Source of the DNA: Patescibacteria group bacterium
GTDB lineage: Bacteria; Patescibacteriota; Microgenomatia; UBA8517
Direction of reading: 5' to 3'
Assembly: GCA_041742135.1 (NCBI GenBank)
Contig: JBGSJG010000008.1
Coordinates: 232,964 to 296,963, forward strand
Length of the DNA stretch: 64,000 nt
Shown here: piece after piece, positions 2,835 to 36,828 of the stretch
How positions within the stretch are numbered: the first letter of the stretch is position 1
Layout of the letters: each line of letters opens with the position of its first letter
The notes under the pieces: generated by a model
Database searches by the model: none
Told to the model about the DNA's origin: nothing
Seen by the model: the letters and a program-made list of their open reading frames with translations, nothing else
Position numbers and translations under genes: made by a program

Positions 2835-3027
2835 CACCAAGTAATCACATTTTACATCGGGACATCGGTTCAAATTCGTTTTAGAATTTCAATACTAAAA
2901 AAACAAACAGATCGAACATCGACTAAACAGTTCGAATCCTATCGGGGTCGCTTGCCAGTTGATGTTCGAACTTGGATAAGTCTTAATCCCACAGATTTAA
3001 TCTCATTAAATTATGTTACTGCTTAAT
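2835..3027 (+). pseudogene. C-terminal fragment paralogous to the end of the 5678..6115 protein (..ESYRGRLPVDVRTWISLNPTDLISLNYVTA*)
   Basis: Manual translation. It shares the GRLPVDVRTWIS core; 25 nt are identical at the DNA level (tgccagttgatgttcgaacttggat). No start codon. Confidence 0.4.
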
Positions 3028-4340: not shown

Positions 4341-5600
4341 ATGAAAAATAAAAGAATGAGAGAAAGAGAGATACTAAATCCGGCAGAGCTTGAACAGAGA
4401 GTTGACGAACTACTCACTAGAGGGGTTGTTGACGTGATTAATAGGGAGCACTTGAGAGAGAGGATGCTTTCTGGTGATGTTTTAAGAGTGAAGTTTGGTA
4501 TAGATCCGACTGGTCCAAATATTCATATTGGAAGAGGATCCACAATTAAAAAACTTAGGGAATTTCAAGATTTAGGCCATCAGGTTGTTTTGATAATTGG
4601 TGATGCTACGGCGCAAATAGGTGATGCTTCAGATAAAGAAAGTACAAGAAAAATGCTAAGTGCAGAGGAAGTAGCTTCGAACAAAGCAAAGTACTTAGAA
4701 CAAATTGGGAGAATTATAGATATCGATAAAACAGAAATCCACCACAATAGTGAATGGACAGATCAACTTACACCCAAAGACTGGATTCGCTTGGGAAGCC
4801 TTTTTACCTTGCAGCAGATAATACAACGAGACAATTTCGCTAAAAGAATAGCAAAAGATAATCCGGTCGGATTTCATGAAGCCATGTATTCTCTACTTCA
4901 AGGTTTTGATTCTGTGAACATAGAAGCAGATGTTGAAATAGGAGGCACCGACCAACTATTCAATTTACTTGCTGGAAGAAAAATACAAGAGCATTTTGGG
5001 CAAAAGCCTCAAGATGTTATGACACTGCAACTATTAGCTGGAACCGATGGAAGAAAGATGAGCACAAGCTGGGGTAATGTGATACTGGTCAACGAACCCC
5101 CAGAAGAGAAATATGGAAAAGTAATGAGAATAGCCGACCCACTTATACCAGTGTACCTAGAAAATGCAACATTAATGCCTATGGAGAAAGTGCGTGAGAT
5201 AAGAGTGGCACTAGAAGAAGGTACAGGAAATCCTATGGATTACAAAAAAGAGCTAGCATATGAGATAGTGAGTTTTTACGATGGGGAAGAGTTGGCAAAG
5301 CAAGCACAATCAAACTTTGAGCAGGTAGTCCAAAAACAGGAAGTTCCCAATGAGATGGCCGCTATAAAAGTTTCACACGAACTAAGCGTTACGGAATTGT
5401 TTGATGTTTTAAAAGGAGCTAACTTAGTTAAGAGTAAAGCAGACGCAAAGCGATTAATGGATCAAGGCGCAATCCAAATAGGAGATTCCAAATTAAAGGT
5501 CGATGATTTGAAGACCTTGGTTGATATGCCTCAAGATTCTGAAGGGATTGTTGTAAAAGTAGGTAAACGAAGATTTGTACGCTTAGTGGTTGGAGAATAA
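4341..5600 (+). CDS. tyrS: tyrosine--tRNA ligase
   Basis: GIDPTGPNIHIGRG (HIGH-type motif), LIIGDATAQIGDAS, KMSTS (KMSKS motif) and a C-terminal S4-like domain. Confidence 0.85.
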   Translation: MKNKRMREREILNPAELEQRVDELLTRGVVDVINREHLRERMLSGDVLRVKFGIDPTGPNIHIGRGSTIKKLREFQDLGHQVVLIIGDATAQIGDASDKESTRKMLSAEEVASNKAKYLEQIGRIIDIDKTEIHHNSEWTDQLTPKDWIRLGSLFTLQQIIQRDNFAKRIAKDNPVGFHEAMYSLLQGFDSVNIEADVEIGGTDQLFNLLAGRKIQEHFGQKPQDVMTLQLLAGTDGRKMSTSWGNVILVNEPPEEKYGKVMRIADPLIPVYLENATLMPMEKVREIRVALEEGTGNPMDYKKELAYEIVSFYDGEELAKQAQSNFEQVVQKQEVPNEMAAIKVSHELSVTELFDVLKGANLVKSKADAKRLMDQGAIQIGDSKLKVDDLKTLVDMPQDSEGIVVKVGKRRFVRLVVGE

Positions 5601-5677
5601 CCAAACTAATCTTCACACGACTCCTTATTAGAGGTAGCTAATTAGCTTAACTTTAATGTTTTGTATATAATTCTAGC

Positions 5678-6115
5678 ATGCAAAAATCTTTTTGGGATAT
5701 TGTAGGTGTCAGTTCTGAAATTCAGACTATTAACGAAGATTCTATTGTAGACGCTGTCCGTGTAGCTTTTATTAGTAATAAGCATAATTTTTATACAAGC
5801 TGTTGGTTTATCGACATTAAAGAAAAGTTTAGAATATTTAGATTTCATAATATTGCATACATTGCAAAGAAAATAAGTAATGAAAAAGCCGAGAAAGAGA
5901 TTAGTAGTTCTCTAAAGGCTTTCAATAAACTTGATGGTAAAGCAGTTGGAACAAAAACAATGAGGATAGTGGTTCCTAAAAAGATTACTTCTTCAAAGGA
6001 TAGCAATAAGTGTTTCCTGATATCAGAATATTTGGGTCGCCTGCCAGTTGATGTTCGAACTTGGATTAGTCGAAACCCAACAGGTCTAATTGGCTTAAAT
6101 TATATTGCTTTATGA
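5678..6115 (+). CDS. hypothetical protein; its C terminus (GRLPVDVRTWISRNPTGLIGLNYIAL) is duplicated as a fragment at 2835-3027
   Basis: ORF only; no recognisable motif. Confidence 0.35.
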   Translation: MQKSFWDIVGVSSEIQTINEDSIVDAVRVAFISNKHNFYTSCWFIDIKEKFRIFRFHNIAYIAKKISNEKAEKEISSSLKAFNKLDGKAVGTKTMRIVVPKKITSSKDSNKCFLISEYLGRLPVDVRTWISRNPTGLIGLNYIAL

Positions 6116-6164
6116 GTTGAGTTACACTATTTAGCTTTTGCTGAGATAGTATTATAATACCCCC

Positions 6165-6611
6165 ATGAGAGCACCTTACCAAGTACTTGTCTTTCCGTAT
6201 ATAAAGAAAGATCAAGGCATTAACTACTGCATCTTTAAACGCAAAGACATGAAAGTATGGCAGGCGGTTTCAGGTGGTGGAGAAGAAGGAGAAACACCAT
6301 TGGAAGCCGCTAAAAGAGAAGCAAAAGAGGAAGCAAATATTCCTACAAAAAATAGCTTCTTCCAATTAAGCTCAACTGCAAGTATCCCCGTTGAAGCAAT
6401 CCGCGGATTTTTGTGGGGAGAAGATGTTCTTGTTATCCCTGAATATACTTTTGGTGTTGAAGTTGATGACGAGAAGATTGGCTTGAAAGACGAGCATACT
6501 GAATATAAATGGGGGACATACGAAGAAATATCGGAAAAGCTGGAATGGGATAGCAACAAAACTGCATTGTGGGAACTTAATCACCGTCTAACCAAAAACA
6601 AGCTGCAATAA
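6165..6611 (+). CDS. NUDIX hydrolase
   Basis: Nudix box GGGEEGETPLEAAKREAKEEANI. Confidence 0.75.
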   Translation: MRAPYQVLVFPYIKKDQGINYCIFKRKDMKVWQAVSGGGEEGETPLEAAKREAKEEANIPTKNSFFQLSSTASIPVEAIRGFLWGEDVLVIPEYTFGVEVDDEKIGLKDEHTEYKWGTYEEISEKLEWDSNKTALWELNHRLTKNKLQ

Positions 6612-6637
6612 GTAACCAACATATCTGGGCGATACCC

Positions 6638-7081
6638 TTATAATTCAGCTTTTCGTTCAACGTCTGCAGAAAAAGCTTTTTCAGAAGCTTTTCTTAAGAA
6701 ATTTTCGCTATCTCTAGCGAAATCCAATCGCTCGAATTCAGAAGGATTAATAAACCTTATTTCTTGCCCCTCATTACAATTAATTTGTTGACATTCATCA
6801 TACCACGCCCAGAAAATAGTCCTTTCTACTTCTAAGTTTTCGCCAATCATATAATTATCTTTTAGTAGAAAGTACAAGTCTTTAGGTCTTATCACATAAT
6901 CTGTTTCCTCTAATAGTTCCCTTGTTCCAGTTGATATAAGATCCTTATCGATGCTTTCTTCCTTACCCCCACCAACTACTCCCCATTTATCAGGCTCAAG
7001 AATACTCGGAATATTATCCCTGTGTTGTGCTAGTACGGAGCCATCCGGCTTTATTAATATAACTGCAGCATACTGTATCAT
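6638..7081 (-). CDS. NUDIX-like hydrolase (degenerate Nudix box); convergent with the previous gene
   Basis: GGGKEESIDKDLISTGTRELLEETDY. Confidence 0.5.
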   Translation of the reverse strand: MIQYAAVILIKPDGSVLAQHRDNIPSILEPDKWGVVGGGKEESIDKDLISTGTRELLEETDYVIRPKDLYFLLKDNYMIGENLEVERTIFWAWYDECQQINCNEGQEIRFINPSEFERLDFARDSENFLRKASEKAFSADVERKAEL

Positions 7082-7168
7082 AAATAAGTATTATACCGTA
7101 AATAACACAATTGTGTCGTGAACAGGAGCTAAATTTTATTTTATTATAAAAACATATATACTATAGGA

Positions 7169-8362
7169 ATGGTTGAAAATCCTTTATCTGAATTTGCTAG
7201 AAAAGATATTCCAGGTGTCTTTAATGAAGTTAATGTTCTCAGGCAACATAAAACTCGTGTTGAACACGCTTTAAATAATGACACGATTTTGCCTCCGTAC
7301 GAAATTATAATTCACCCAGCTGCTGGTTGTAATCTTCATTGTGACTGGTGTATCGGCGGGAGAGTCCTTGAAGATCAGGATGGCGAATGGAGTGATTTGC
7401 TTCCGAGCGCCCTAGTAAATCCTGACAATATGGAAAGGTTAATAACGGGAGTGGTTAATTATAAGAAAGAAGGTTTCAGGGTTGAGAATGTCTCTTTTTC
7501 AGGTATAACAGGTGAACCTCTTGTAGCCAAACAATCATTTATAAGAGCAGTCGATATCCTTAAAAACGAGGACATCAGAGTTGGCCTTTTCAGCAACGCA
7601 GTTCTTATTGATGAAGAAACAATAGAAGCCCTCTTAAAAATAGATTATATAAGTATTAGTGTTGATGCCGGTACACCCGAGACTTATGCCAATTTGAAAT
7701 ATGGAGGGATGCCTCAGGGAAGAATACTGTTCGAACGCCTTGTCAGAAACATCGATAGTCTTGTTAAGGCTCGAAATGAATCTACGGATAGCAACTTGCA
7801 GGTTAACTCGTCTTTTGTATTATACCCTGACAACTATGATGAAATATACGAAGCTGCGAATCTTTTAAAAGGGTTAGGTGTGGGAACACTTCGGATGAAA
7901 CAAGATATATCTGGTAGAAAGTTGTTGTCTCAAGAACAAAAAGAGGAAGCAAGAATACTACTTGAAAGAGTTGACGGGCTTGTTGATGGTAACTTTGAAT
8001 TTGTAAAAATTCATCAACTCGGTAGACCTTCAGACATGCAACGACTTTTCCATAGGTGTGTAATTACGGACTTAATGGCCGCAATAGGCTCTGATGGTAA
8101 TGTTTATCCATGCAACTATAATGCAACGCTCGAAGGAGTTCCGTATGGTAATGCAATAGATAGTAGTTTTGAAGAAATTTGGGAAGGTGAAAAAAGAAAA
8201 CAAGTCAAAAATCAAATTCCAAGTATTTGCCCTCCATATTGCGATCCTTTCAAAACTCGAGCGAACAACCTATTGCAGGCAGTTAGTGACTCTCAAGAAG
8301 TGCATGGTATAGAAGAAACACAGGGGTACATTCAAGAAATAATAGATACAATTGATAAATAA
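7169..8362 (+). CDS. radical SAM enzyme with C-terminal SPASM/twitch-type Cys cluster
   Basis: CNLHCDWC (CX3CX2C) and a later Cys-rich segment CNYNA...ICPPYCDP. Confidence 0.8.
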   Translation: MVENPLSEFARKDIPGVFNEVNVLRQHKTRVEHALNNDTILPPYEIIIHPAAGCNLHCDWCIGGRVLEDQDGEWSDLLPSALVNPDNMERLITGVVNYKKEGFRVENVSFSGITGEPLVAKQSFIRAVDILKNEDIRVGLFSNAVLIDEETIEALLKIDYISISVDAGTPETYANLKYGGMPQGRILFERLVRNIDSLVKARNESTDSNLQVNSSFVLYPDNYDEIYEAANLLKGLGVGTLRMKQDISGRKLLSQEQKEEARILLERVDGLVDGNFEFVKIHQLGRPSDMQRLFHRCVITDLMAAIGSDGNVYPCNYNATLEGVPYGNAIDSSFEEIWEGEKRKQVKNQIPSICPPYCDPFKTRANNLLQAVSDSQEVHGIEETQGYIQEIIDTIDK

Positions 8363-8376
8363 TTCGAAAGAATAAG

Positions 8377-9546
8377 TTGGCGTACAAATATAATCAGAAA
8401 GATTTAATCTCGATTGGAGAACCGGCTCTTGGGACTGTTTACAACCAAGAGGAGATTGATGTTGTAAATAATGTGCTTAAGAAGTCTATGGATCCCAGTG
8501 TAGGCTTCTACGCGGCAGAAGAGACTTTGAAGTTTGAACATGAATTTTCCAAATTATGCAATTCTAAATATGCGATTGCGTTAAATGGGGCTGGTGGAGC
8601 GATAGATATTGTAATTAGATCTCTCAATATCAAAGACGGAGACGAAATAATTTCCTGTTCGATTAATTTTCCAGGGACACATTTATCAATAATTGGGAAT
8701 GGTGCAAAACTTGTTTTAGCTGAGCCTGATCCTCTTACACTCAACTTAGACCCAACAGATTTAAAGGGACGCTTGACAAAAAGGACCAAAGCGGTGGTTA
8801 TCACTTATATGAATGGTCTTGCAGCTGATATGGACTCAATTAATAGCGTCATTAATAGTTCTAAGTTGTTCGGAAAGGACAAGCCAAAAGTTATTGTTGA
8901 TGCTGCAAGAGCTCTTGGTACTACTTTCAAAAGACATCACATTGGTCCAGAAGCGTGGGCAACTGTATTTAGCTTTCAATCAAAGAAAACTCTATCAACC
9001 TTAGGTGAAGGCGGTATGGTAATTACCAACGACAGTGATTTAGAGCTTGCTTTGAGGCAATTTCGATCATTTGGTAAAAACGAAAATTGGGGTAGTAATT
9101 ATAAGATGACAAAAATTCAAGCTGCTGTAGGGTCAGTACAATTGAATAAATTACCAAAATTGGTAGACAAGAGGAGAAGATTGGCAGAACAAAGGAATCA
9201 GTTTTTTTCTAAAATCCCAGAAATCTCAATTCAACAAGATACCGAATATAGTAAGAACTCATATTATTTATATACTCTGATTTTACCTCCAAATCCAAAA
9301 GGCACTAAGCGCGATAAATTGATGCAGCATCTAAAAAATGGCTATGGAGTAGGTACTGTAGTAGGTAATCCGCCAACTTATAAGTCAAATAGCTTAATTA
9401 AAAAAAGAGTTATTGCGCAGCAGTTACCTATAGCAGAAGACCTCGGGGAAAGAATTATATGTGTGAGCATACATCCACTTTTAACTAAGAAAACTAATCT
9501 GTATGTTATTGATTCGTTTTTAAAAGCATATGAAAAGGCCTTCTGA
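8377..9546 (+). CDS. DegT/DnrJ/EryC1/StrS-family PLP-dependent (sugar) aminotransferase
   Basis: The fold is recognisable along the full length, with the Lys region FSFQSKKTLS and GEGGMVITND. Confidence 0.8.
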   Translation: MAYKYNQKDLISIGEPALGTVYNQEEIDVVNNVLKKSMDPSVGFYAAEETLKFEHEFSKLCNSKYAIALNGAGGAIDIVIRSLNIKDGDEIISCSINFPGTHLSIIGNGAKLVLAEPDPLTLNLDPTDLKGRLTKRTKAVVITYMNGLAADMDSINSVINSSKLFGKDKPKVIVDAARALGTTFKRHHIGPEAWATVFSFQSKKTLSTLGEGGMVITNDSDLELALRQFRSFGKNENWGSNYKMTKIQAAVGSVQLNKLPKLVDKRRRLAEQRNQFFSKIPEISIQQDTEYSKNSYYLYTLILPPNPKGTKRDKLMQHLKNGYGVGTVVGNPPTYKSNSLIKKRVIAQQLPIAEDLGERIICVSIHPLLTKKTNLYVIDSFLKAYEKAF

Positions 9547-10534
9547 CAAAAAATTAGATAAGATTTTAAAATTCCACTACCCTAATTTCAAAGAATATAC
9601 TTTCCAGAAAAAATTAGAAAAGAACGCATTCTTGGTTAAGTCTCAAAATAAGCAGTTCGTTTTAAAAAAATACGACCAAAAAATAACAAAAGAGAGGCTT
9701 CAATTTTTCGAAGAGTTGCAAAACATGACAAACGCTTATATGCAAATCTCACCTCAGGTTTTAAAGACCAAGGATGGAAATTTAAATGTACATAGAAATA
9801 GTTTTTATTATGATTTAACTGAGTTTGTAGAGGGTGAAATGATACAAAGAGAACAAGTGAAGAATATAAGCGAATTCTTTTACAAAATTGGATTATTTGT
9901 TGGCAAGTTGCATAAATCTTTTTCAGAAATTGAAAGTAAAGGCCAAATCACTATGAATTCGTTGTTGTATACAGCACCAGAAAGTCCAAAACACCTTGTG
10001 GATCTACTAGACTCTTATTACAAAGCTCAGATTGATGACAGCTGGAAAGAAATCATTAAAGAAAAAATAACTATAGTTAATTCATATACAGATCATTTAA
10101 AGGTATTTAACGCTTTGCCAAGGAAAATCGTTCATGGGGATTTGTATTTGAAAAACCTTTTGTTTGATAAATCACAGAAAATCATTGGGTTGATTGACTT
10201 TGTTCAGGCAGGTGTATTTTTCAGATGTTACGAAGTTATAAGAGCATTGATTCAAACTAATAAATTCTTTCAGAATACAGATATTGAGGCTCGATATATC
10301 AAACAATACCTAAAAGGATATCTTCAAGGTAATTCTTTAGATGAAAGTGAAATTCATAACATGCTCGATTTCTATATTTATGTCCAGGCTTCGGATACCG
10401 CCTTTTTAGATATTGAAACCATTGTAAATGGAGGTAAAGAAATCAATGAATATGCAAAATACAGATCTAATAGTCTACACGCACTTTTTAGAAATCGCCA
10501 TTTATTAAATGAAGTAATATACAAAGCTAAATAG
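9530..10534 (+). CDS. aminoglycoside-phosphotransferase/choline-kinase-fold kinase
   Basis: HGDLYLKNLLFD...IGLIDFVQAG (Brenner and DFG-like motifs). Overlaps the upstream gene by 17 nt, suggesting an operon. Confidence 0.6.
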   Translation: MKRPSDKKLDKILKFHYPNFKEYTFQKKLEKNAFLVKSQNKQFVLKKYDQKITKERLQFFEELQNMTNAYMQISPQVLKTKDGNLNVHRNSFYYDLTEFVEGEMIQREQVKNISEFFYKIGLFVGKLHKSFSEIESKGQITMNSLLYTAPESPKHLVDLLDSYYKAQIDDSWKEIIKEKITIVNSYTDHLKVFNALPRKIVHGDLYLKNLLFDKSQKIIGLIDFVQAGVFFRCYEVIRALIQTNKFFQNTDIEARYIKQYLKGYLQGNSLDESEIHNMLDFYIYVQASDTAFLDIETIVNGGKEINEYAKYRSNSLHALFRNRHLLNEVIYKAK

Positions 10535-10536
10535 AT

Positions 10537-11505
10537 ATGGAACGTTTTCAACATAAAGACCAAGAACGAAGGAATCCTGTTGGTAATTCTTATACCTTTG
10601 ATTCAACTAAAATTAATTTAATATCATCCTGTGGGGAGACTGTAGAGTTTTGCAATGAGTATTTTGAGTTGTACGCGCAGATAGATGAAGTGACACAAGA
10701 GTGCGACTGGACCGTCGTAGAGCACATAGGCTCATCAACCGAAGGGCATCCTTGGAAAGTTGACGAAGCAAGTAAGTTGGTTACTATTCAAGGAAACGAA
10801 TCTGATAGCAGATTAACTATGAGGATCGTGAGAAGTTTAGTAATGCTCGAGGACATTAACAATGGAAAAGTCATGTTTAAGGGTGGCGCATTTACAAATA
10901 AAGATGGCCAAGGAATAGCTATTATGGGTGAAAAAAGGTCAGGGAAGACCTCATTCTTGCTGGGATATATGTTAAGGAATGACTCTCAAGCGAGATTCGT
11001 TACGAACTCGCACGTTGCATTGGGTTTTGAAAATGACCAGGTTTATGCTTACGGATATCCTATGTCGGTAGGAGTTAGGCTTAATGTACTTGAAGCAATG
11101 AAAAAGAGAGGAAATGACAAAATTACCCCAATAATTGATGACCTAAGAAGCAATTTGCAACCCGGAGGTGAGAATCGTTATTATATAGATCCCGATAAAC
11201 TTAGCCAGTATTTAAGTGGCAGAATTGCTAGCAAGACCCATCTTGATAAAATTATTATAGTTAGGAGCGTTCCGCCAAATTCTTTTTCTGGTATCAAAAA
11301 ATTAAATATAGACGAAGTAGAAGTTTATCTAAAAAGTTATTACCTCAAGCATCTACAAAGCGATGGCTGGTATAGATTATACGATGTTGATGCCAGTCAA
11401 CAAATAAATTCAATTAGAGATATGCTTGAACAAACCGATTTATATGAGCTCACTTTTAATGTTAATAGCAGTATAGACAATATAAATTTAGTAGATCAAA
11501 TCTAA
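10537..11505 (+). CDS. P-loop protein, possibly an HPr-kinase-C-like serine kinase
   Basis: GEKRSGKTSFLLGYMLRND resembles the HprK C-terminal P-loop. Confidence 0.35.
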   Translation: MERFQHKDQERRNPVGNSYTFDSTKINLISSCGETVEFCNEYFELYAQIDEVTQECDWTVVEHIGSSTEGHPWKVDEASKLVTIQGNESDSRLTMRIVRSLVMLEDINNGKVMFKGGAFTNKDGQGIAIMGEKRSGKTSFLLGYMLRNDSQARFVTNSHVALGFENDQVYAYGYPMSVGVRLNVLEAMKKRGNDKITPIIDDLRSNLQPGGENRYYIDPDKLSQYLSGRIASKTHLDKIIIVRSVPPNSFSGIKKLNIDEVEVYLKSYYLKHLQSDGWYRLYDVDASQQINSIRDMLEQTDLYELTFNVNSSIDNINLVDQI

Positions 11506-11507
11506 AC

Positions 11508-12488
11508 ATGGAAAGAGGTAATCTAAGTTGGTTTGGCGGTCCCATTTCGCACATGCATCTAAGGCTCCCAAGTGAACCTAACGATGCAGAAGGCGAAGAG
11601 AATCTACAATTTACCCACGAGACTGCCACATATTACTTAGGCAAGTTATACAGGAACCCAAATGTTAGAATTACGGATACTGCTCATGCTCTGCTTTCAT
11701 TCAGAGATCTCGACAACCTCAGAAGGCCAAATCTAGAATCAGCTGAGAGTTGGAGTAATAGAATTATTACACAGGCTTCAGTAGAAACTTTAAAAAGAGT
11801 ATCAGAAATGAAAAAACTGGCCAATAGTAATATTATCATCGGTGTAGAGGCCGATATTATAGACGATCAAGGTCATTTAAGTTTAGATGATGAATGCTTA
11901 CAAGAAATAGATTTTACAATCGCATCTTTTCACAGATTCATTTGGACAATTTTCTCGGAAAGAGTTTACTATTCTTCAGAAGAACTAATTAATATGTACC
12001 TTGGAGCATTAGATAATCCTTCAGTTCGTGTGTTAGGTCATCCTATAAGAACCTCCTCAAAATTAATCGGACCACGAAAATCTGAAGATTTCTTGCCTGT
12101 CCTCGAAAAAATGAAAGAGAAAAGAGTCGCTTACGAAATCAACCCACTTATCGACCTTTCTGATGAACAACAGAAACTAAATCTTGAGGTGATTAAAGAG
12201 TGTTCTCGAGTTGGCACTCCATTAATTTTGGGGTTTGACTTTCATAATATGGAAGACATTGATTTTCTTAAAGATATATCTCTTGATAATAATGCAATAG
12301 AAGGTTTAAGCCTTGACTATGTTTTTTCCAGAAACGCAGACGTCCATTTTGGGGTATTTAGACGATTGATCAAAAATGTAGGCATTTTGAAAGAGCTAGG
12401 AGTTGGAAAAGAGCAGATTGTAAATAGTAGCGATCAAAATTTCGATCAATGGATTAACGAACGAAAATCCTTGCATCTGCGTGATTAA
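11508..12488 (+). CDS. PHP-domain-like metal-dependent phosphoesterase (tentative)
   Basis: Scattered His/Asp motifs (ASFHRF, LGHPIR, GFDFHN). Confidence 0.3.
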   Translation: MERGNLSWFGGPISHMHLRLPSEPNDAEGEENLQFTHETATYYLGKLYRNPNVRITDTAHALLSFRDLDNLRRPNLESAESWSNRIITQASVETLKRVSEMKKLANSNIIIGVEADIIDDQGHLSLDDECLQEIDFTIASFHRFIWTIFSERVYYSSEELINMYLGALDNPSVRVLGHPIRTSSKLIGPRKSEDFLPVLEKMKEKRVAYEINPLIDLSDEQQKLNLEVIKECSRVGTPLILGFDFHNMEDIDFLKDISLDNNAIEGLSLDYVFSRNADVHFGVFRRLIKNVGILKELGVGKEQIVNSSDQNFDQWINERKSLHLRD

Positions 12489-12538
12489 ATGATTTTAAAT
12501 ATTGATCTAATAGAATAATATGGTACGAGACCTGTTAG

Positions 12539-12613
12539 GGTGGCTGATGGGACTCGAACCCACGGCCTGCTGTTCCACAAACAGCCGCTCTAACCAACTG
12601 AGCTACAGCCACC
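12539..12613 (-). tRNA. tRNA-His (anticodon GTG) with genomically encoded G-1
   Basis: Manual fold of the reverse complement: acceptor GTGGCTG/CAGCCAC, D-arm GCTC-AGTTGGTTA-GAGC, anticodon loop TTGTGGA, T-arm GTGGG-TTCGAGT-CCCAT. An extra 5' G pairs with discriminator C, which is the His hallmark. Confidence 0.85.
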
Positions 12614-12761
12614 TCGTCGCAACGCGACATGCTATCTTTCATCCCGACAAAGTCGGGATTTCATACGCTAGTCGGTTGCTCCTTTTCACAAATCATTCGA
12701 TTTGTGCAGGCATATTATACCAGTCACGCCCAATACGCGTCTAGGCAAATCAAAATGGGGA

Positions 12762-13025
12762 TTATTCTTCTTCAGGTTCTTCTTCGGCTAAAGGATAGCC
12801 TGGGGTGCCTGCGCCATCCTGGACGGATTCCTCGTCTTTATCAATTTCCTCAGCAATCTCAAAGCCGTCTTCTTCGGGATCCGGTTTGTTGCCAATCACG
12901 TTTTGAATCATTTCTTCAGTATCGCTAAACTTATCCGGGCCGCCGTCTGTATAGTCGGTGCCGTAAACATCGTCGTCTTGCTTTTTGAGCTCTTCATCAA
13001 TTTTGCTCGGCGGAATTTTAACCAT
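12762..13025 (-). CDS. small highly acidic hypothetical protein
   Basis: ORF only. Confidence 0.25.
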   Translation of the reverse strand: MVKIPPSKIDEELKKQDDDVYGTDYTDGGPDKFSDTEEMIQNVIGNKPDPEEDGFEIAEEIDKDEESVQDGAGTPGYPLAEEEPEEE

Positions 13026-13068
13026 ATGTTTATTTTAAAGAAAATCATTTATTGCGCAACCAGCAAAA

Positions 13069-14016
13069 TTGGGGGTAGAATATGCTATGATCGAAAGCTT
13101 ACCTGGATTTTTCGATCTGCTCAAGTTGTCATTTGCCCAGTACAAAGCAAATTGGACTTTTTATATTAAAATTCTCGTCCGTGGGTTTTTGTATGGCATA
13201 CTTCTGGCTGGGCTTCCTGGCATTTTGGCAGTTGCAAGCATCTTTTTTTTGCCTAGGCCAACCTCATTTATAGTTTTTGCGGTTTTGATTGTAATCACCA
13301 TAATTGGCTCAATATTTGCTCAAGTTTGGCAAATCTTAGCAATGTCCAAGACCGCAATTGAAGTTAGCGGTGGAGCGACACCTCTTAAGTCTGCAGACGT
13401 GTTTAAGTCAGTCAGGCCTTTGGTATTTGGCTATTTTCTTGTAATGATACTTCAAAGTTTTGCCAGTTTTTCTGGTTATTTGTTATTTATAATCCCTGGA
13501 GTTATTATGTCCATCTGGTTTAGCCTCGCAATCTATACATATCTGATTGACCAGAAAAAGGGAGTTTCCGCACTAATTTTAAGCCGAGACTACGTTAAGG
13601 GCTACACCGGCGGTGTGTTTTTGTATTTTTTCTTTTGGGGAATAATTTCCTACGGCCTTTTGAGTTTCCTGCCCAGCTACATTTTTGAAAAGCTTGACAT
13701 GGATTTACTTGGCGGTCTTGTGAGTCTTGTAATTACACCTGTGATTATTCCACTTAGCACAATATTTGTTCTAAATATTTACCTAGCTCTCAAAAAGATT
13801 AAGGGCCAAATTAACGTTGAATATTCTTCTGAGCGAAAAGCTAAATATTTCATTGCGGCTCTTATGCCACTTGTAGCTATTTCAATACTCGCTGCTTGGA
13901 CAATAAGCATTATGCCTAAGTTGTATAACATGTTCTTGCAAAGCCCGGCTATGGAGGAGAAATTTATGGATTATGACGAGTGGAGCGAACCCACCGAACT
14001 TGATACGTTGTCGTAA
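13069..14016 (+). CDS. polytopic membrane protein, hypothetical
   Basis: Multiple hydrophobic helices. Confidence 0.45.
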   Translation: MGVEYAMIESLPGFFDLLKLSFAQYKANWTFYIKILVRGFLYGILLAGLPGILAVASIFFLPRPTSFIVFAVLIVITIIGSIFAQVWQILAMSKTAIEVSGGATPLKSADVFKSVRPLVFGYFLVMILQSFASFSGYLLFIIPGVIMSIWFSLAIYTYLIDQKKGVSALILSRDYVKGYTGGVFLYFFFWGIISYGLLSFLPSYIFEKLDMDLLGGLVSLVITPVIIPLSTIFVLNIYLALKKIKGQINVEYSSERKAKYFIAALMPLVAISILAAWTISIMPKLYNMFLQSPAMEEKFMDYDEWSEPTELDTLS

Positions 14017-20774: not shown

Positions 20775-21046
20775 TAAAATGGTAGTTTGTCGATTGTGCT
20801 GTCCTTATCTTCAGTTCCAAAGGTGTCACGCAGTAATTTGCCGACAGAGTTAATTCCAGCAATTCCCCCTGATAAAAAGAATGGAAGGACAAGGCTGTTG
20901 AGAAATTTATCCCAATTTGTCAGTGCCTCGGGTTGTGCATTAACTAGCACCATAGAGCCGGTAAATAGAAATGCTGAAAGAAAGATGCGACCGAATCGCC
21001 ACAAGACTTTTTTCCATTCTGGATATTCATTGTTCATACTGATCAC
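20774..21046 (-). CDS. holin-like two-TM protein
   Basis: Size, two TM helices, adjacency to the endolysin. Confidence 0.4.
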   Translation of the reverse strand: MISMNNEYPEWKKVLWRFGRIFLSAFLFTGSMVLVNAQPEALTNWDKFLNSLVLPFFLSGGIAGINSVGKLLRDTFGTEDKDSTIDKLPF

Positions 21047-22109
21047 CTCCTTTATTCCTTATTAATGTTCCTAAATATTGAAATGCGAGAGAAAAAATAA
21101 TTTGCGGTGTTGGCTGAAGCGGTAGTTTGTCTTTTTGGCAGGTTTCAAACTTACTTTTAAATTCCTGAGCTTCGTTTAACGCTCGACCCTTGGCTTTATT
21201 TACCTCATCAAGCTCGTCTTCCAGTACCCCTATGCGAGCCTGAGCCAACGGTAGGGCATCTGAACCGTTTTTGAGCTGCTTATTTAGAGCGTCAATTAGG
21301 GATTTATAGTACTTTTCTTTATCTAGCAGTGACTTTTCCAGCCTGCTTACATGCTCAACCCTGTTTTCAATTTCCTGGTTAGCCTTGTCCAATTCTGATT
21401 GTTTATCATTTAGCTTGTTAGATAGGTCAGTTTCACGACTTTTATACCCTCCGATAACACTTTTAATTCTGTCACTGGGGGTAGTATTGGAGTCGTCATT
21501 TATCTCAAGTATCTTTAATGCTTCTGGCCACTTTGTAGCTGAGGCGACAATTTGTTCATATTTAATTCGCCATTCTGGAGTGTTCGGGATCAAACATCCT
21601 TCAGGGGTTGAAGTTGTACCTTTTTCTTTTTTGTATTTTCTCAATTCATCAAAAAACTCTTGAGGGTTGATGGCACCAAAATAACCATTGCTATAGTTGT
21701 CGCTGACAAACTTTCCATTTTGTAGCTGCCCACGCTTTACAGTGAGGTGAAGGTGACTCCCTGTGCTGTTGCCAGTGTTGTCACTGACAGCCATCTCATC
21801 GCCTTCATTTTTGTTTTCAAAATGCTCGATTGACTTACAGTGAGCGTATGTGAGCTTATAAGTGTTATAAAGCCGAACAATGACTTCAAAGTACAACCCA
21901 AAACCGTCGTTACCTTCATTGCCTTGGGCATAAAACTGTGACTTCCAGGAGGAAAAAATATATCTAAAACCTTGAGGAGTATCTGGAAACTTGGTTTTTA
22001 AATCCCAGCCATTATGCCCTTTAAGTCCAAAACGGGCATAGGCTTCTGGATTTCCTCCAAATCCTTGAGTAAGTTCAAATGGTTCTATTGGTCGAATAAT
22101 GTCAGACAT
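21027..22109 (-). CDS. M23 (LytM) peptidase-domain endolysin with C-terminal coiled-coil region
   Basis: GHNGWDL (HxxxD) and GNSTGSHLHLTV (HxH). Confidence 0.75.
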   Translation of the reverse strand: MSDIIRPIEPFELTQGFGGNPEAYARFGLKGHNGWDLKTKFPDTPQGFRYIFSSWKSQFYAQGNEGNDGFGLYFEVIVRLYNTYKLTYAHCKSIEHFENKNEGDEMAVSDNTGNSTGSHLHLTVKRGQLQNGKFVSDNYSNGYFGAINPQEFFDELRKYKKEKGTTSTPEGCLIPNTPEWRIKYEQIVASATKWPEALKILEINDDSNTTPSDRIKSVIGGYKSRETDLSNKLNDKQSELDKANQEIENRVEHVSRLEKSLLDKEKYYKSLIDALNKQLKNGSDALPLAQARIGVLEDELDEVNKAKGRALNEAQEFKSKFETCQKDKLPLQPTPQIIFSLAFQYLGTLIRNKGGDQYEQ

Positions 22110-22113
22110 ATGG

Positions 22114-25100
22114 TTATCGGTAAATCAAACTCTTTATACTTTGATTGTCCGTGGAACCTGGCGTTTGTTTCAATGGATTAAGTGTTGATCCCTGTCCATT
22201 ACTTTCACCATCTTGGGGAACTCCACCAGGAAGGGTTGTCTTTAGTAAACGCTGCAAGTCCGTTGCGCTAAAAGTAACACTGCTCTGGAATAAAGCGGCT
22301 TCTTTTGGGTCATCTTTCATTAACAGCGGAACCACTTGGGGGATGAGTTTTTCGGCTTCTTCGTTCCAACGCAAAGCCATCTGTTGAGCGCCTTGAAGGT
22401 CGCCAGCCTCTATCAGCTTTTTCATTTGCAAACGAGTCGTATTGTATCCAACTTCAGTATCGTATTTAATGTCCCAGGCTATTCGTTGCTTCTCACCACC
22501 GTGGGTTCTGTAAAAACGATCCATTGTTAGCCCAAGAACATCTGCAGGGCTCAACAGCTCGCGTGCCAGGCTTCCTGTAAGCCCATAAATGGCGTGAGTA
22601 AGCTTCATCGGGCTTACACCAAGTGCACGGCCGATTGTGATGGCTAAATCAGGCGTTCTGCTGTCATATTGTTCCGATGGTGCTACTTTATCCAATCTTC
22701 TGGGAACAACGGGAAAGCCTGTAAAGAAGTTGGTATTGGTCGCTATCTCTAGCGGGGTGCGAATAATTGGAGGGAGAGCTCCTGAGAAAAATGCTTGTGC
22801 AGATAACTCGCCGTCACGAGTGAATGGAACCGGCGCGAGCTGGCTCATCCATTCCAAACCAAGTTTAAATAAGTTCTGTGGCTCCTGTTTTCTGACATAT
22901 TCAAAGGCATACATTAAGGGATTAAAGAAGATTGCTCCGATATCGCCCTTTGGTATTTGAACAACTTTAGGCACACGGTTGCCTTCTTCGTCTTTGTCTT
23001 CACCGACAATAACGATGAAATAGGTGTCTTTTGCCCATTGAGGAATATCATCCCAGAGTTCTTCGTGGTTCATCACGTTATAAAAATAGGTTGCAATTCC
23101 AGGCAGGACTGTCAGTGCCATAGCCCGAGCAGCAGTTCGAACAGGATTATCTTTTAGCACTCGGCCGACATTTAGCAAACCCTGCCATCGAGCATTCACG
23201 AATGGGACCCACATATTGATCAAACGAGCTTCTACTCCAGATTTAGCAAAATCGACCGTGACATTTCGGGCTTCAAAGGCTGCCTCTAAAGGAGTAGCTC
23301 CTTTACTGATGGCTTTTTTGTATATTCCAAGTCGAGGAGCAAGTTCTATTGCCTCAGAAAAGTTACCAATCAGCTCAAACGGATTAATGACGGCTTTGGT
23401 TCTCTCCATCCATTTTGGACGAAATAATTGTTCCGATGCTGTTGCCAATCCCTTGCTGGATTCGATGTAACCACCGTACCCGCCTTGATTTCTCATAAAT
23501 TCGTCATAGGCTTTGGATTCCCATTTAAATGCTGAGCGGAACCCATCTTTAAATCCTGAAAGCCAAACAGCAGGATTGAAGCCATACTTTGATACTAGTG
23601 TGGCTGTTTGATAGTCACGAACGGCATTAGATAGGGTGAACGGGAAATAGAGCGTTGTAGTTCCTGCTTTAAATGCTTTTGAAGATAGCATGACTAGCTT
23701 GCCCATCAAGCCAGCTTGAGCTGGACTCATGGCATGCATTGCTTCCGATAAATCTTTTGGCACCGCCCAACGTGTAACTTTGCCGCCAATAAAAACGCTG
23801 ACAGACTCCCATTCCTGCGGAGCATTTTCTCCTTCGGGTAAATATCGTATTAAACCTCTGGTAGCATCAGGATGTGTTTTCCTTAAATCAACGAGTTTAA
23901 GTGCAACCTTGTTTCTCTCCACCAGACTTACAGCTTTTGTTAGATTATCGATAATTGAAATAAATGGATCACGGATGATTTTGTCAGTTCCCTCCAAAGC
24001 GCTAACTACTCCTTGTTTGCTAACAGAAAACGTTTCTGAGCCGATGACCATTTTATCGGCTTCTTCCAGGGTGGGAATAAATTCTAAAACATGGAATGGT
24101 AGCCAATTTTTATTCTTTTCTACAACGGCATTAAAGGCTTTGTTGCTCAAAATACCAACATCTCTCATCGGCTCTAAAATTGCCTTAATCGCCCAATTCT
24201 GCATACCGTTACCAACTTGTTCAAACGTCTGGAAAGACTTATCACCCACCTTATTTTTCAATTCTTTAAGAGCTTCTTCTGCTGTGTGTTGAGTCACTCC
24301 AAGAGGGTTTTCGATTCCTCTTGCAGCTCTTTCTGAGGTTCTTTGCGCCAAAATATAGCGGGTAAAGTCTGCCCTCATTTTTCTCACTGGCTGGATGATT
24401 CCGTAGAGATCTCGAAAGTTACCTTCCACGATGCCAAAGCGACCGGCATACATTCTGGCTCCTACATACGGACTCGAGTTTATATCGATGGGTTTTCCTT
24501 GGAGTTTGCTCACTTTGTTTTCAAACTCACGAATAGGAGCGAATCGATCAGTAAAAAGACGGGGAAAGACTTCCATTGCCTTTTTTGCTTTATCTAGCAA
24601 ATTGGCAGCTGGTGACAATTTACCAACCATAGCATCAATTTGTTTTAAAGCGCTTCCGTCAGGTGGTGGGCTATCTGATCCGATAGGAATTTCTTGAGGA
24701 GGTCTGGGTGGAGTGCCGGGTGGTGCTGATACAAGCTCATCAGCTCTTTGAGTCTCTGGGGCAACAACGTTCCCATTTCTTCGTTCCTGGAATACCGGCT
24801 CATTGGAAACTTCCTTAGGATCAGGGGCACGCTCAGCTTGCTGCAACTCAACTTCTTCCGATTTTTTATATTTTTCTCTGATTTCGGCTGCTTTTACTGC
24901 GACTTTCTCATCTTTAGATAACTTTTCCATTAGACCTAAAGCTTCAGCGTCTTGAGGTTGATTTGTTACTGAATTAATAGTCGGTGTTTGATCTCTGAAA
25001 GCTTTATCGTATCCACGGCGAAAAGTTTCCAGAGACCCTTCTTTGTCAGAGTAAACCTTGGTTACTCTTACGTCTTTGGGGTTGAGGGCAACCAATAAAT

Positions 25101-27126: not shown

Positions 27127-27131
27127 AATTT

Positions 27132-28202
27132 TTATACTCCAGGCGTAAATAAGCGTCTTAAGAAACCCATTACTCCAGGCTGATTTTTAAGTTGCCATTC
27201 TTCATCGATAATGCTTGATGCGTTTTTACCTTTATCTGTACTGACACTTGAAAGATTTGTCTTTAATTGATCCGGAGTAAAGCCTTGCTTCCAAGCGGAA
27301 CGTATTTCAGTACGTAGATCGCCTTCATTTACAGTTGTACCTGTTGATTCTTCAGAGGGTTGCTCGTATAAACTGGTAGTTCCCAATGATGGATCAAAGA
27401 AGCCTATGACGTTCCCAAAGGCATCTTTGACTTGCTGTTTGGCATAAGTACTGCTTGAACCACCGGCTTTTGACCGATTAGTCTGGGCTTCATAGAGCTT
27501 TAGTTCAAACTCTTTTTCCCAGCGATCCTCCTCTTTAGCTGCCGATAGCTCAGACGACCTTACTTGGTTGTAGGTGTTGACCAATCCACCCAAAAATTGA
27601 AGATCATAACGAAGATTGTTTAACTTAGCTTCCTTACCCTGGGTTTCCAAAGCAACCTTGCGAGTTATTTCACCAAGGCGGGCATTATAGTCCTCAGCTT
27701 TAGCATTTCTCTCCTGAATGAAATTGTTGATTTTTGCATTAGCTAGCCTTTGCACCTCACCCGACTCTCCGGTTATAGTGGCTGCCGAGTAACCGGGATT
27801 TTTTCTTATTTTGCTGACTGATTCATCACGAACATTTTTCTCAGCAGCAATGTCAGTGTCTAGAGTAGAGATAGTATCTTTGAGTGTGTCTAATTTTGCT
27901 TTGCTGTATTCCTCGTCATATCGCTTTGTTTGATATCCTTCCAAGTCACCAGAAAGATCCTGAGCTTGTTTATAGGTGTTCTGAAACTTAGTGTTGAGTG
28001 TTCCAATATCAAAACCCAGAATCTTATCTGAGCCACCGCCTAATTCAGAAAGTCCTGTACTAAGATTTGAAATAGATTGTTGCTTTGTTGGTTCATCACC
28101 ATCAGACCAGACATCTTTACCTGAAGAGTCAGTACCCCACCAGCGAAGAGCCTTGTCTTGATTGGGTTGCCAGTACCAGCCGCCGTATTGTTTGTCTGCC
28201 AT
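27132..28202 (-). CDS. hypothetical phage structural protein (coiled-coil rich)
   Basis: Synteny. Confidence 0.35.
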   Translation of the reverse strand: MADKQYGGWYWQPNQDKALRWWGTDSSGKDVWSDGDEPTKQQSISNLSTGLSELGGGSDKILGFDIGTLNTKFQNTYKQAQDLSGDLEGYQTKRYDEEYSKAKLDTLKDTISTLDTDIAAEKNVRDESVSKIRKNPGYSAATITGESGEVQRLANAKINNFIQERNAKAEDYNARLGEITRKVALETQGKEAKLNNLRYDLQFLGGLVNTYNQVRSSELSAAKEEDRWEKEFELKLYEAQTNRSKAGGSSSTYAKQQVKDAFGNVIGFFDPSLGTTSLYEQPSEESTGTTVNEGDLRTEIRSAWKQGFTPDQLKTNLSSVSTDKGKNASSIIDEEWQLKNQPGVMGFLRRLFTPGV

Positions 28203-28448
28203 TTACGACACACCTCCTTTCTGGTCACCAGATTTGCTTGGAACTATCTGATTAATTCTTCCGGTACCAAGGTCAAATGTGTATTCGGTATTAGCATCCA
28301 AGCCATACTTGAAATACTTATTTACCAACCAGCGATCTTTTTGTGCTTCTAAAGCTTGGACCACTAGTTTGTATTGATTGATCATCTGCATCCTGGCCTG
28401 CAGTTCATCAAGATCTGATTTGTCGAGTTTTTTAGTTTTTTTGAACAT
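28203..28448 (-). CDS. small hypothetical phage protein
   Basis: ORF in the structural operon. Confidence 0.3.
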   Translation of the reverse strand: MFKKTKKLDKSDLDELQARMQMINQYKLVVQALEAQKDRWLVNKYFKYGLDANTEYTFDLGTGRINQIVPSKSGDQKGGVS

Positions 28449-29763: not shown

Positions 29764-29767
29764 AGTT

Positions 29768-31213: not shown

Positions 31214-31219
31214 AATGTT

Positions 31220-31924
31220 TTATGACCATCTGATATTTTTGGCTTGGCCAACAAAGACGCTCGATGGTTCTTCGTCTTCACGGTCTTTTAGCTGTTGCAG
31301 TAGAGCATGTGCCTCAACAACTTCTTTTTCGCCATCATTTTTTCTACCTGGAGCTTTAGCTAGACAGGTACCTAGTGCCAGCTTGAGGACTGGCTCATCC
31401 ATTTCTTCTGGGGTAATCGGCTCGTCAGTTTCTTCAACCAGCCTTACCGGTCGGCGTTTATAAAACAGGTCAATCACTTTCTCTGCGGTATCGGCGACAG
31501 GATCTAAAAAGTATTGATCTCCAATAACGGCATAGACTTTTTGCCAGCGCCAGTCTGTATGGGTTGAAGGATGCACAACATCTAGAGAAGGGTGGAATGT
31601 GGGCGCAATCTTGTTGTCAGATTTTCGGCTCAGATACTGATTTTCCGTAGCCTTGTGGTACTCCTCACCGTCTAAGGAGAGAAAAACCATTCCGCCAGGC
31701 TTATAATCAAATGGTAAGAAGTAAGACTCTTTCCCAGATCCATCTGGGTTGAGTTCTGTTAACTGAGTAGCGTGTTTACTAAGAAACTTCCACCGCGCAA
31801 AGTTACAGGCACGAATAATTGCTTTATTGATCCAACGGTCTTTATCTGAATCCTTCCAGAACCCGCTTACTTTTGAGGCGGTAATTCTGGCGTTTAAGTC
31901 TTGTCTAAATTCTTGTAATTGCAT
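31220..31924 (-). CDS. hypothetical phage protein; the likely start is the internal Met (the ORF is open to 31999 but then overlaps the upstream gene by 64 nt)
   Basis: ORF plus synteny. Confidence 0.35.
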   Translation of the reverse strand: MQLQEFRQDLNARITASKVSGFWKDSDKDRWINKAIIRACNFARWKFLSKHATQLTELNPDGSGKESYFLPFDYKPGGMVFLSLDGEEYHKATENQYLSRKSDNKIAPTFHPSLDVVHPSTHTDWRWQKVYAVIGDQYFLDPVADTAEKVIDLFYKRRPVRLVEETDEPITPEEMDEPVLKLALGTCLAKAPGRKNDGEKEVVEAHALLQQLKDREDEEPSSVFVGQAKNIRWS

Positions 31925-31935
31925 AGTTTTGATTT

Positions 31936-33865: not shown

Positions 33866-33891
33866 GGCTTTTTCACCTCCTTTTCATTTAG

Positions 33892-34506: not shown

Positions 34507-34508
34507 AT

Positions 34509-34805: not shown

Positions 34806-34811
34806 ATCTTT

Positions 34812-35450: not shown

Positions 35451-35507
35451 AATTTTTCACCTCACTTTCTTTGTTGTCTGATTTAATAGAGTTCCAGACT
35501 TGAGTTT

Positions 35508-35533
35508 GAAGGGGTGATAACGCTCACCCCTTC
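35508..35533. promoter_or_regulatory. perfect 10-bp stem / 6-nt loop hairpin (GAAGGGGTGA-taacgc-TCACCCCTTC) in the gap downstream of the capsid gene
   Basis: Read directly. There is no U-tract on either strand, so it is not a canonical intrinsic terminator. Confidence 0.5.
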
Positions 35534-36791: not shown

Positions 36792-36828
36792 AATATTTTT
36801 TCACCTCCTTTCTTAATAACGTGGGCGG

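Follow-up and report, generated by a model that had tools for sequence, protein, structure and literature searches.

DesII, BlsE and BtrN carry out radical chemistry on a ring carbon of a carbohydrate or cyclitol, and the pathways of all three (desosamine, blasticidin S and the 2-deoxystreptamine of butirosin) pair a radical S-adenosylmethionine (rSAM) enzyme with DegT-family aminotransferases. Aminonucleosides can be made by compact gene sets: AdgB-E of Photorhabdus, homologues of the puromycin enzymes Pur10, Pur4, Pur7 and Pur3 (dehydrogenase, aminotransferase, Nudix enzyme and phosphatase), are sufficient in E. coli for the conversion of GTP into 3'-amino-3'-deoxyguanosine (PMC9239236), and the Nudix enzyme Pur7 is counted among the resistance-mediating enzymes (PMC11641026). 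HPr-kinase homologues polyphosphorylate lasso peptides, and an HPr-kinase homologue together with a nucleotidyltransferase phosphoglycosylates a lasso peptide (PMC8498205). Here, we analysed a 64,000-nucleotide stretch of DNA (the window; contig JBGSJG010000008.1, positions 232,964 to 296,963, assembly GCA_041742135.1) from a Patescibacteria group bacterium, in which a five-gene operon (7169-12488 of the window) lies next to a tRNA-His gene. We propose, with middling confidence, that this operon and the NUDIX gene or genes upstream of it represent the form taken in Patescibacteria by a rare small-molecule cassette that is dispersed horizontally and would remodel a nucleotide-linked sugar into an amino(deoxy) derivative.

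The operon had been described in an earlier sequence-only reading of this DNA, and it proved to be real: all five open reading frames (ORFs) are on the + strand at exactly the coordinates given there. They encode, in order, an rSAM enzyme (7169..8362, 397 aa), a DegT aminotransferase (8377..9546, 389 aa, TTG start), an APH-fold small-molecule kinase (9530..10534, 334 aa), a two-domain P-loop kinase with a PEPCK/HprK fold, referred to as HprK-like (10537..11505, 322 aa), and a PHP-superfamily phosphoesterase that is a predicted phosphatase (11508..12488, 326 aa). The first two genes are 14 nt apart, the second and third overlap by 17 nt, the two remaining junctions measure 2 nt each, and 87 nt separate the operon from the gene upstream. 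All five ORFs are intact and match their orthologues in length, so that none is a pseudogene. The GC content of the operon (0.35) is the same as that of the left flank. Upstream are two NUDIX hydrolase genes, NUDa on the + strand (6165..6611, 148 aa; Pfam NUDIX 2.9e-12) and the divergent NUDb on the - strand (6638..7081, 147 aa; Pfam NUDIX 8.3e-6).

The same gene families recurred jointly in dozens of loci, a grouping far beyond chance. A census brought in 79 additional metagenome loci, and partners were counted in the 21 non-redundant loci that had 6 kb or more of flanking sequence. Orthologues of NUDa (41-80% identity) lay within or adjoining the rSAM cluster in 19 of the 21 loci; an HprK-like kinase accompanied the rSAM gene in 18, an APH-fold kinase in 15 and a DegT gene in 14, while a UDP-ManNAc/UDP-GlcNAc-type dehydrogenase (a WecC/TviB-like nucleoside diphosphate (NDP)-sugar dehydrogenase) and a PHP gene of either of two families were each present in nine. 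The rSAM, NUDIX, HprK-like, DegT and APH genes were all found together in 11 of the 21. Orthologues of NUDb flanked the cassette in 4/21 groups (L001-3, L005, L007 and L026), all of them Patescibacteria-type variants. Judged by conserved neighbourhood, NUDa belongs to the same unit as the five-gene operon, so that the earlier delimitation was right about the five genes and missed the NUDIX gene at 6165-6611; NUDb is probably part of the unit as well. Furthermore, gene order was shuffled over at least four phyla, being HprK-DegT-NUDIX-rSAM-APH in Bacillus, rSAM-HprK-CarbT-APH-DegT-NUDIX in Actinobacteria (CarbT, carbamoyltransferase) and HprK-DegT-rSAM-APH-NUDIX in Pseudomonas, and such differences between phyla favour functional linkage over inherited synteny. 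The phosphatase has been displaced by non-orthologous enzymes, with a PHP protein here, a second PHP family in the metagenome loci L042/L043, a HAD protein in Bacillus and Pseudomonas, and a DSPc domain fused to a Pol-beta nucleotidyltransferase in L098; the phosphatase step therefore appears to be required. Taken together, these gene neighbourhoods define the core of the cassette as an rSAM enzyme, a NUDIX hydrolase, a PEPCK/HprK-fold kinase and an APH-fold kinase, usually accompanied by DegT and a phosphatase.

Close homologues of the P-loop kinase were rare. A word-filtered search of 5.8 billion clusters, which misses more distant relatives, returned nine matches, the contigs of which all share the neighbourhood, and an HprK-like profile returned a single locus from the GTDB genomes. 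The rSAM family gave 184 matches at E<1e-5, and 224 cluster representatives of 1.84 billion were matched at E<=1e-30, about 20 of these above roughly 340 bits. The family was found in metagenome-assembled genomes of Patescibacteria and Elusimicrobia, in Actinobacteria OV320, Streptomyces and Pseudomonas sp. 25 E 4, and on Bacillus toyonensis/BS98 megaplasmids. One lineage carries a variant (L020/L057; 9658-14017 in L020) with the order rSAM-NUDIX-short-chain dehydrogenase/reductase (SDR) epimerase/dehydratase-nucleoside diphosphate kinase-methyltransferase and without DegT, APH or HprK-like genes; the nucleoside diphosphate kinase of this single lineage hints at nucleotide chemistry. In Streptomyces aureoversilis (L097, 8772-21314), a 43%-identical rSAM occurs in a differing cluster without NUDIX, kinase or DegT genes, which contains an SDR epimerase, a carbamoyltransferase, a B12-binding rSAM, a PcrB-like protein and asparagine-synthase-like amidotransferases. 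In addition, the 1.84-billion-protein representative library contains giant proteins, 1,600-6,500 aa long, in which domains of the rSAM family (profile E 1e-50 to 1e-110) are embedded (P0265, P0289, P0303, P0310, P0311 and others).

In the larger genomes, the cassette is found in secondary-metabolite and mobile-island contexts and not in glycan-assembly loci. The Bacillus cluster is on plasmids of 280-350 kb, among two ATP-binding cassette (ABC) exporters, an adenylate-forming enzyme, a peptidyl carrier protein, a decarboxylase, an acyl-CoA dehydrogenase, a HAD-IIB phosphatase, an integrase and a nucleotidyltransferase that is annotated only as 'nucleotidyltransferase family protein' and has no NCBIfam match. 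The cluster of Actinobacteria OV320 includes a NodU/TobZ-type carbamoyltransferase, four more NUDIX genes, an adenosine deaminase, major facilitator superfamily and MsbA-type exporters and IS21; an ABC protein of this cluster that had been considered as an ABC-F ribosome-protection factor turned out to be an MsbA-type exporter. The Pseudomonas cluster adjoins a P4-like AlpA/DUF927 element. The operon DNA had no match in the phage records searched, its proteins matched phage proteins at 22% identity only, and a scan of IMG/VR gave no homologue at 38% identity or more, so that the cassette is not phage-borne. PADLOC 2.0 returned only generic matches to the core of prokaryotic viperins (pVips) and to NUDIX and called no defence system, and matches in PHROGs were likewise generic. 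The cassette resembles pVips in having an rSAM that may act on a nucleoside triphosphate (NTP), in its kinases, in weak pVip matches (9.7e-12) and in the island or plasmid location of several relatives. However, the match is confined to the generic rSAM core, viperins have no twitch or SPASM domain, and NUDIX, DegT and phosphatase genes are foreign to pVip systems.

The rSAM protein scored above the Pfam cutoffs for both Radical_SAM (PF04055, 50.1 bits; cutoff 29.5) and SPASM (PF13186, 36 bits; cutoff 21.5). Its cluster motif, C54-X3-C58-X2-C61, was invariant in alignments of 20 and 52 homologues, and the CX3CX2C motif together with the PF04055 score above the gathering cutoff places it in the Radical SAM superfamily. 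The seven-Cys motif of a full SPASM domain (CX9-15GX4C...CX2CX5CX3C...C) was not present; among the 52 homologues, the C-terminal half had only four conserved Cys, C297-X12-G-X4-C315 ... C354-X3-C358. These are enough for one auxiliary cluster and thus point to a twitch-type domain rather than a full SPASM domain. The family also carries a conserved N-terminal R..D.PGRFNE motif. When an AlphaFold2 (AF2) model of the protein (pLDDT 92.8) was searched with Foldseek, the best match was DesII, a TDP-sugar deaminase/dehydrogenase (E 9e-14, TMq 0.63-0.65), and SuiB, SkfB, BlsE (a cytosylglucuronate enzyme, in tenth place) and anSME came after it; BtrN was not among the best 50 fold matches listed. 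In profile comparisons, the family matched the BtrN twitch domain weakly (E 2.8e-4), the match to the core of DesII was about 1e-3, and sequence identity to DesII and BlsE was only ~16%. NCBIfam gave many weak matches to peptide maturases, every one far under cutoff.

The locus is close in some respects to each of these carbohydrate systems and differs from each in others. Like DesII (with DesI/DesV) and BlsE (with BlsH), which work on the sugar ring of a nucleotide-linked or nucleoside substrate, the rSAM would give a keto-deoxy sugar, with a DegT-family enzyme acting next. In contrast to them, it has an invariant four-Cys auxiliary site and the distinctive N-terminal motif, the des and bls pathways have no NUDIX, two-kinase or phosphatase partners, and the window operon has no 4,6-dehydratase or CGA synthase. 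With BtrN/BtrS it shares the pairing of a single-auxiliary-cluster (twitch) rSAM with DegT, but BtrN is much shorter (~250 aa for the native protein and ~270 aa in PDB chains), the cassette has no 2-deoxy-scyllo-inosose (DOI) synthase, and its genomic partners indicate nucleotide chemistry. The likeness to BtrN and BtrS suggested in the sequence-only reading holds for the logic of rSAM plus DegT and, weakly, for the twitch domain; in fold, DesII is nearer.

The DegT protein matched PF01041 with 241.8 bits (cutoff 19.8; 1.7e-71), and the pyridoxal phosphate lysine K204 and D175 were kept in 24 orthologues; it is a member of the DegT/DnrJ/EryC1/StrS family. It scored under every NCBIfam equivalog cutoff (PseC, LegC, ArnB, WecE and DesI; 179 vs 423 for PseC). 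The nearest solved structures were QdtB (2.8e-43) and a protein labelled Gln-scyllo-inositol transaminase (1e-42), with DesI and BtrS farther away (6.6e-22 for BtrS/BtrR). DegT was absent from a third of the loci, which suggests that amination is not universal. In L001-L003, in which the rSAM is 89% identical, no DegT gene is present and 87 nt lie between the rSAM gene and the APH gene that comes next (1897-6123 in L001); from this arrangement, amination would be dispensable in L001-L003 or encoded elsewhere in those genomes.

The APH-fold kinase matched PF01636 (64.8 bits, 1.3e-17) and had a conserved catalytic H202-G-D204...N209 and D223. The sequence-only reading had related it to aminoglycoside self-resistance enzymes, which was not supported: the nearest families were ThrB-type homoserine kinase (3e-15) and CotS, and the kinase (9530-10534) scored 19.8 bits against the APH(3') resistance family (APH_3p), for which the cutoff is 205. 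The P-loop kinase (10537-11505) had no match to any Pfam family, Hpr_kinase included, and no phosphotransferase system context. It has a Walker A motif, GEKRSGKTS, with G131 and G136-K137-T138 conserved, and it matched the FomB-kinase family weakly (8.7e-8), while its Bacillus orthologue matched TIGR04355, HprK-related kinase B, at 8e-8. Foldseek searches with its AF2 model (pLDDT 84) gave ATP-dependent phosphoenolpyruvate carboxykinase (ATP-PEPCK) first (E 9e-11, TMq ~0.55) and HprK/P next (E 4e-7). According to the model, the protein belongs to the P-loop superfamily of PEPCK and HprK and is not HprK proper, and the earlier label 'HprK-like' holds at the level of fold or superfamily only. 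FomB phosphorylates a monophosphate, and the weak family matches liken the P-loop kinase to FomA/FomB and to the HprK-related kinases of lasso clusters, enzymes that put a second or further phosphate on a hydroxyl already carrying one, with the APH-fold kinase as a possible supplier of the first phosphate. However, the scores were far under the family cutoffs, the two-domain architecture is nearer to ATP-PEPCK, and there is no phosphonate or lasso machinery.

For the PHP protein, the score against PF02811 (22.5 bits, 1.6e-4) was under the cutoff of 26.4, but the assignment made in the sequence-only reading finds support in matches to NCBIfam PRK09248 (2.6e-16) and, in the PDB, to the PHP domain of PolX (7.6e-7). 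Residues H60, E114, D116, H142, H178, D244, H246 and H280 were conserved, and the canonical N-terminal HxH was not. The nearest curated family of NUDa was NudB (59 bits, under the cutoff of 103), and G37-G39, E40, E43, R51, E52, E55 and E56 of its Nudix box were kept in 40 orthologues. Plasmids of Vibrio and Bacillus also carry stand-alone homologues of NUDa (42-59% identity), surrounded by cassette-like genes, at 9001-9438 in L095 (Bacillus mycoides plasmid) and at 9001-9438 in L096 (Vibrio navarrensis plasmid); the small genes around them encode GNAT, DUF3265, ToxN and barstar proteins and lie with insertion sequence elements. Such a pattern is typical of protective or sanitising enzymes and is, by analogy, reminiscent of resistance genes.

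The NUDIX hydrolase and the P-loop kinase were the most faithful partners of the rSAM and relatives add a UDP-HexNAc-type dehydrogenase, which indicates a nucleotide-linked substrate. In support of this, the top fold neighbour DesII acts on a nucleotide sugar, and BlsE is a nucleoside enzyme. We infer the substrate, and every chemical step that follows, from these properties. The rSAM, with one auxiliary [4Fe-4S] cluster, would abstract a hydrogen from a sugar ring carbon of the nucleotide-linked substrate, the candidate sugar being the ribose of an NTP or nucleoside monophosphate or the hexose of a UDP-HexNAc-type sugar. Oxidation or radical beta-elimination would then give a keto(-deoxy) sugar, which DegT would transaminate to the amine. 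The APH-fold kinase and then the FomB/HprK-like kinase may add successive phosphates, for activation, cryptic phosphorylation or self-protection. The NUDIX hydrolase would cut the diphosphate or triphosphate linkage and may also sanitise a toxic nucleotide pool, and the PHP enzyme would take off the last phosphate to release the product, which could be an amino(deoxy) nucleoside/nucleotide or an amino-sugar antimetabolite. The NDP-sugar dehydrogenase of the large-genome versions and the DesII-like fold speak for a hexose; the presence of several NUDIX genes, the adenosine deaminase and the analogy to Pur/Adg speak for a ribose.

The function set of Pur10/Pur4/Pur7/Pur3 and AdgB-E, namely a sugar-ketone oxidant acting on an NTP, a DegT enzyme, a small NUDIX enzyme that strips pyrophosphate and a monophosphatase, is the same as that of the cassette, which is also compact. 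In the cassette, however, the oxidant is a radical-SAM/twitch enzyme instead of a Pur10-type NAD-dependent dehydrogenase, none of which is present in the operon; the phosphatase is PHP (HAD or DSPc elsewhere) instead of Pur3-type; two dedicated kinases are core members; and DegT is missing from part of the loci. By this analogy, the cassette works like the Pur/Adg aminonucleoside cassette but is not a member of it, and would be an O2-independent analogue in logic. A more specific version of the proposal, which we regard as tentative, is an O2-independent rSAM route to a 3'- (or 2'-) amino/keto-deoxy nucleotide that would serve as a chain-terminating or GTP/ATP-mimicking antimetabolite aimed at competitors, hosts or phages, with the NUDIX sanitisers and the phosphorylation/dephosphorylation steps protecting the producer. 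Its users would be ultra-small Patescibacteria as well as Bacillus, Pseudomonas and Streptomyces.

Several observations weigh against the proposed remodelling of a nucleotide-linked sugar. The peptide maturases SuiB and SkfB nearly equal DesII in fold-search score. The loci without DegT include the closest relatives, L001-L003, and the version in the window has no exporter, regulator or tailoring genes. The NDP-sugar dehydrogenase of large genomes has no role in a Pur-type scheme, and the likeness of the cassette NUDIX and DegT proteins to Pur7 and Pur4 is one of predicted function. Finally, neither the published literature, searched for the gene combination and the Bacillus protein accessions, nor the curated families held anything covering the cassette.

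The same dehydrogenase, together with the SDR epimerase/dehydratase of one variant, the DesII-like fold and the closeness of DegT to QdtB, an NDP-sugar 3-aminotransferase, would also suit the making of an NDP-activated amino sugar for a cell-surface glycan or for protein/peptide phosphoglycosylation, in which the HprK-like kinase would phosphorylate an acceptor hydroxyl and a Pol-beta-type nucleotidyltransferase would attach the sugar. Pol-beta-type nucleotidyltransferases are present in the Pseudomonas locus and in L098, the Bacillus clusters have the protein annotated only as a nucleotidyltransferase family member, and the lasso peptide modified by an HPr-kinase homologue and a nucleotidyltransferase is a precedent (PMC8498205). 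We nevertheless regard this explanation as rather unlikely: no glycosyltransferase, flippase or polymerase was found in or beside the cassette in the window and most loci, a NUDIX hydrolase and a phosphatase would destroy the NDP-sugar donor, and the plasmid and island sites beside non-ribosomal peptide synthetase-like genes and exporters resemble secondary metabolism. In addition, no protein reached the cutoff of any curated lipopolysaccharide or capsular polysaccharide family; a confident assignment to lipopolysaccharide or cell-wall families, which the sequence-only reading had named as the result that would speak against its own proposal, was looked for and did not appear, all sugar-pathway equivalogs being far below cutoff. 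That the cassette serves salvage, detoxification or resistance, inactivating or recycling an exogenous nucleoside or amino-sugar toxin, appears improbable. Patescibacteria rely on scavenged nucleotides, APH-type, nucleotidyltransferase, NUDIX and phosphatase activities are classic modifying or sanitising ones, NUDa homologues occur alone on plasmids, and the window version lacks an exporter; on the other hand, an rSAM with an aminotransferase is an unusual and costly way to inactivate a compound, and the Bacillus and actinobacterial versions sit within biosynthetic-looking clusters with exporters.

The sequence-only reading had favoured an unusual aminosugar or aminocyclitol-type pathway in a small genome. 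A non-housekeeping amino-'sugar' pathway is in keeping with our results, while the aminocyclitol specifics are not, because no cyclitol-forming enzyme was found. An aminocyclitol route (2-deoxystreptamine or streptidine-type), in which the rSAM would be a BtrN-like inosamine dehydrogenase, DegT would play the part of BtrS/StsC and the APH protein that of a self-resistance or StsE-type kinase, is in our view very unlikely. In its favour, steps by a dehydrogenase, DegT, an APH-type kinase and a phosphatase alternate in the streptidine pathway; the same can be said of the BtrN-like four-Cys pattern and twitch match of the C-terminal domain, the label of the second-best DegT structure and the carbamoyltransferase of the actinobacterial versions. 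Against it, no DOI synthase, DHQS-like protein or inositol-phosphate synthase was present among the scanned ORFs of the window or in the annotated related loci, in agreement with the earlier reading, in which no DOI synthase was seen either; BtrN is absent from the 50 best fold matches listed; the NUDIX and NDP-sugar dehydrogenase partners have no role in cyclitol pathways; and the APH-fold kinase is not close to aminoglycoside kinases. The earlier reading had also taken a SPASM-type rSAM next to an HprK-like kinase as a possible signature of maturation of a peptide that is made by ribosomes and modified after translation, here one encoded elsewhere. SuiB, SkfB, anSME and ChlB are among the top fold matches, weak peptide-maturase matches are many, and HprK-related kinases are found in lasso clusters (PMC8498205). 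This explanation is largely refuted and, to us, highly improbable, since gaps of at most 14 nt in the operon and 87 nt upstream leave no space for a precursor gene, the operon has no intergenic small ORF within or next to it, non-identical loci have no small-ORF family in common (the small-ORF search upheld the earlier statement that no precursor peptide was seen), no PqqD/RRE domain, peptidase or lasso/cyclase gene was found, and the rSAM is co-conserved with NUDIX, DegT and NDP-sugar dehydrogenase genes.

A second cluster in the right-hand part of the window (38941-50916) had been assigned an aminoglycoside flavour and joined to the same pathway. It lies between genes for an SU10-type major capsid protein (35622-36791; 2.5e-42) and an SU10-type portal protein (50930-52837). 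It encodes FolE, QueD/PTPS (5e-37), a QueE-like rSAM and a QueC-like protein with an N-terminal extension, which form a complete preQ0-type set, and further an AdoMet decarboxylase, a BpsA-type aminopropyltransferase, a family 2 glycosyltransferase, an LmbE-type deacetylase, a NodU/TobZ-type carbamoyltransferase, two APH-fold kinases and a GalE-like SDR. From its gene content, it looks like a candidate phage module for 7-deazaguanine DNA hypermodification; no DpdA/TGT has been identified so far. We rejected its carbamoyltransferase, APH and LmbE genes as a second half of the pathway, because they are prophage-borne and none of the related loci has them together with the operon; the actinobacterial cassettes bring their own carbamoyltransferase (35% identity). 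The prophage-like region (21027-37641 and 50930-63167) also encodes a 1670-aa LPD38 'polyvalent' protein (22114-27126), an M23 peptidase, an amidase_2 protein (31936-33600), a ResIII helicase fused to an endonuclease, an N6/N4 DNA methylase, a MerR-HNH protein, a DUF2779 protein and another HNH protein. GC content is raised to 0.39-0.47 over 12-38 kb, compared with 0.34-0.40 in the rest of the window. Within ORF 28432-29763 of this region, three tandem 120-nt repeats (29111-29470; 100%, 75% and 60% identical to the reference copy) would encode a 40-aa repeat. A 53-nt direct repeat (85% identity; 60707-60759 and 63191-63243) is placed just upstream of the minus-strand MerR-HNH and HNH genes and may serve the prophage as a common promoter or regulatory element.

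The neighbours of the operon are TyrRS, the NUDIX genes, tRNA-His and PyrD. The adjacent TyrRS is 70% identical to that of Ca. Woesebacteria RBG_16_34_12, and its other named relatives are from Patescibacteria; on this sequence relationship, a Patescibacteria (Microgenomates-like) host is a reasonable assignment, as is the earlier remark on a small genome. The tRNA-His(GTG) gene (12538..12612, - strand; ARAGORN and Rfam) is an adjacent landmark with no sign of functional membership in the cassette. Neither tRNA-His-derived direct repeats nor any island boundary was found around the operon, and the related loci examined had other genes at this position, although no tRNA scan was made there. An Rfam scan of 5400-13200 gave the tRNA as its only match and no riboswitch, and a promoter/terminator scan gave background level only. 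Farther upstream, an 81-nt direct repeat (80% identity; 2940-3020 and 6029-6109) joins the 3' end of ORF 5678-6115, which is unannotated, codes for 145 aa and has no family match, to sequence ~3 kb upstream; the repeat suggests a small paralogous gene.

Our analysis describes a discrete, previously undescribed cassette of an rSAM-twitch enzyme, a NUDIX hydrolase, a PEPCK/HprK-fold kinase and an APH-fold kinase, DegT and a phosphatase being optional. The cassette is an undescribed variant of the rSAM+DegT sugar-modifying and aminonucleoside pathways. The rSAM family is rare, yet it occurs in at least four phyla, on plasmids and islands, and its culturable carriers (Bacillus toyonensis pBT001, Pseudomonas sp. 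25 E 4 and the Streptomyces-like OV320) make the proposal directly testable. If the tentative antimetabolite proposal is true, the cassette would represent a new biosynthetic class of nucleoside antibiotic and would be among the few secondary-metabolite functions assigned to bacteria of the candidate phyla radiation. If an amino-deoxy nucleoside or nucleotide is made, the use of an rSAM instead of an NAD dehydrogenase would be a new enzymatic solution for pharmacologically important compounds, and the product would be a chemical weapon or defence for bacteria of this radiation.

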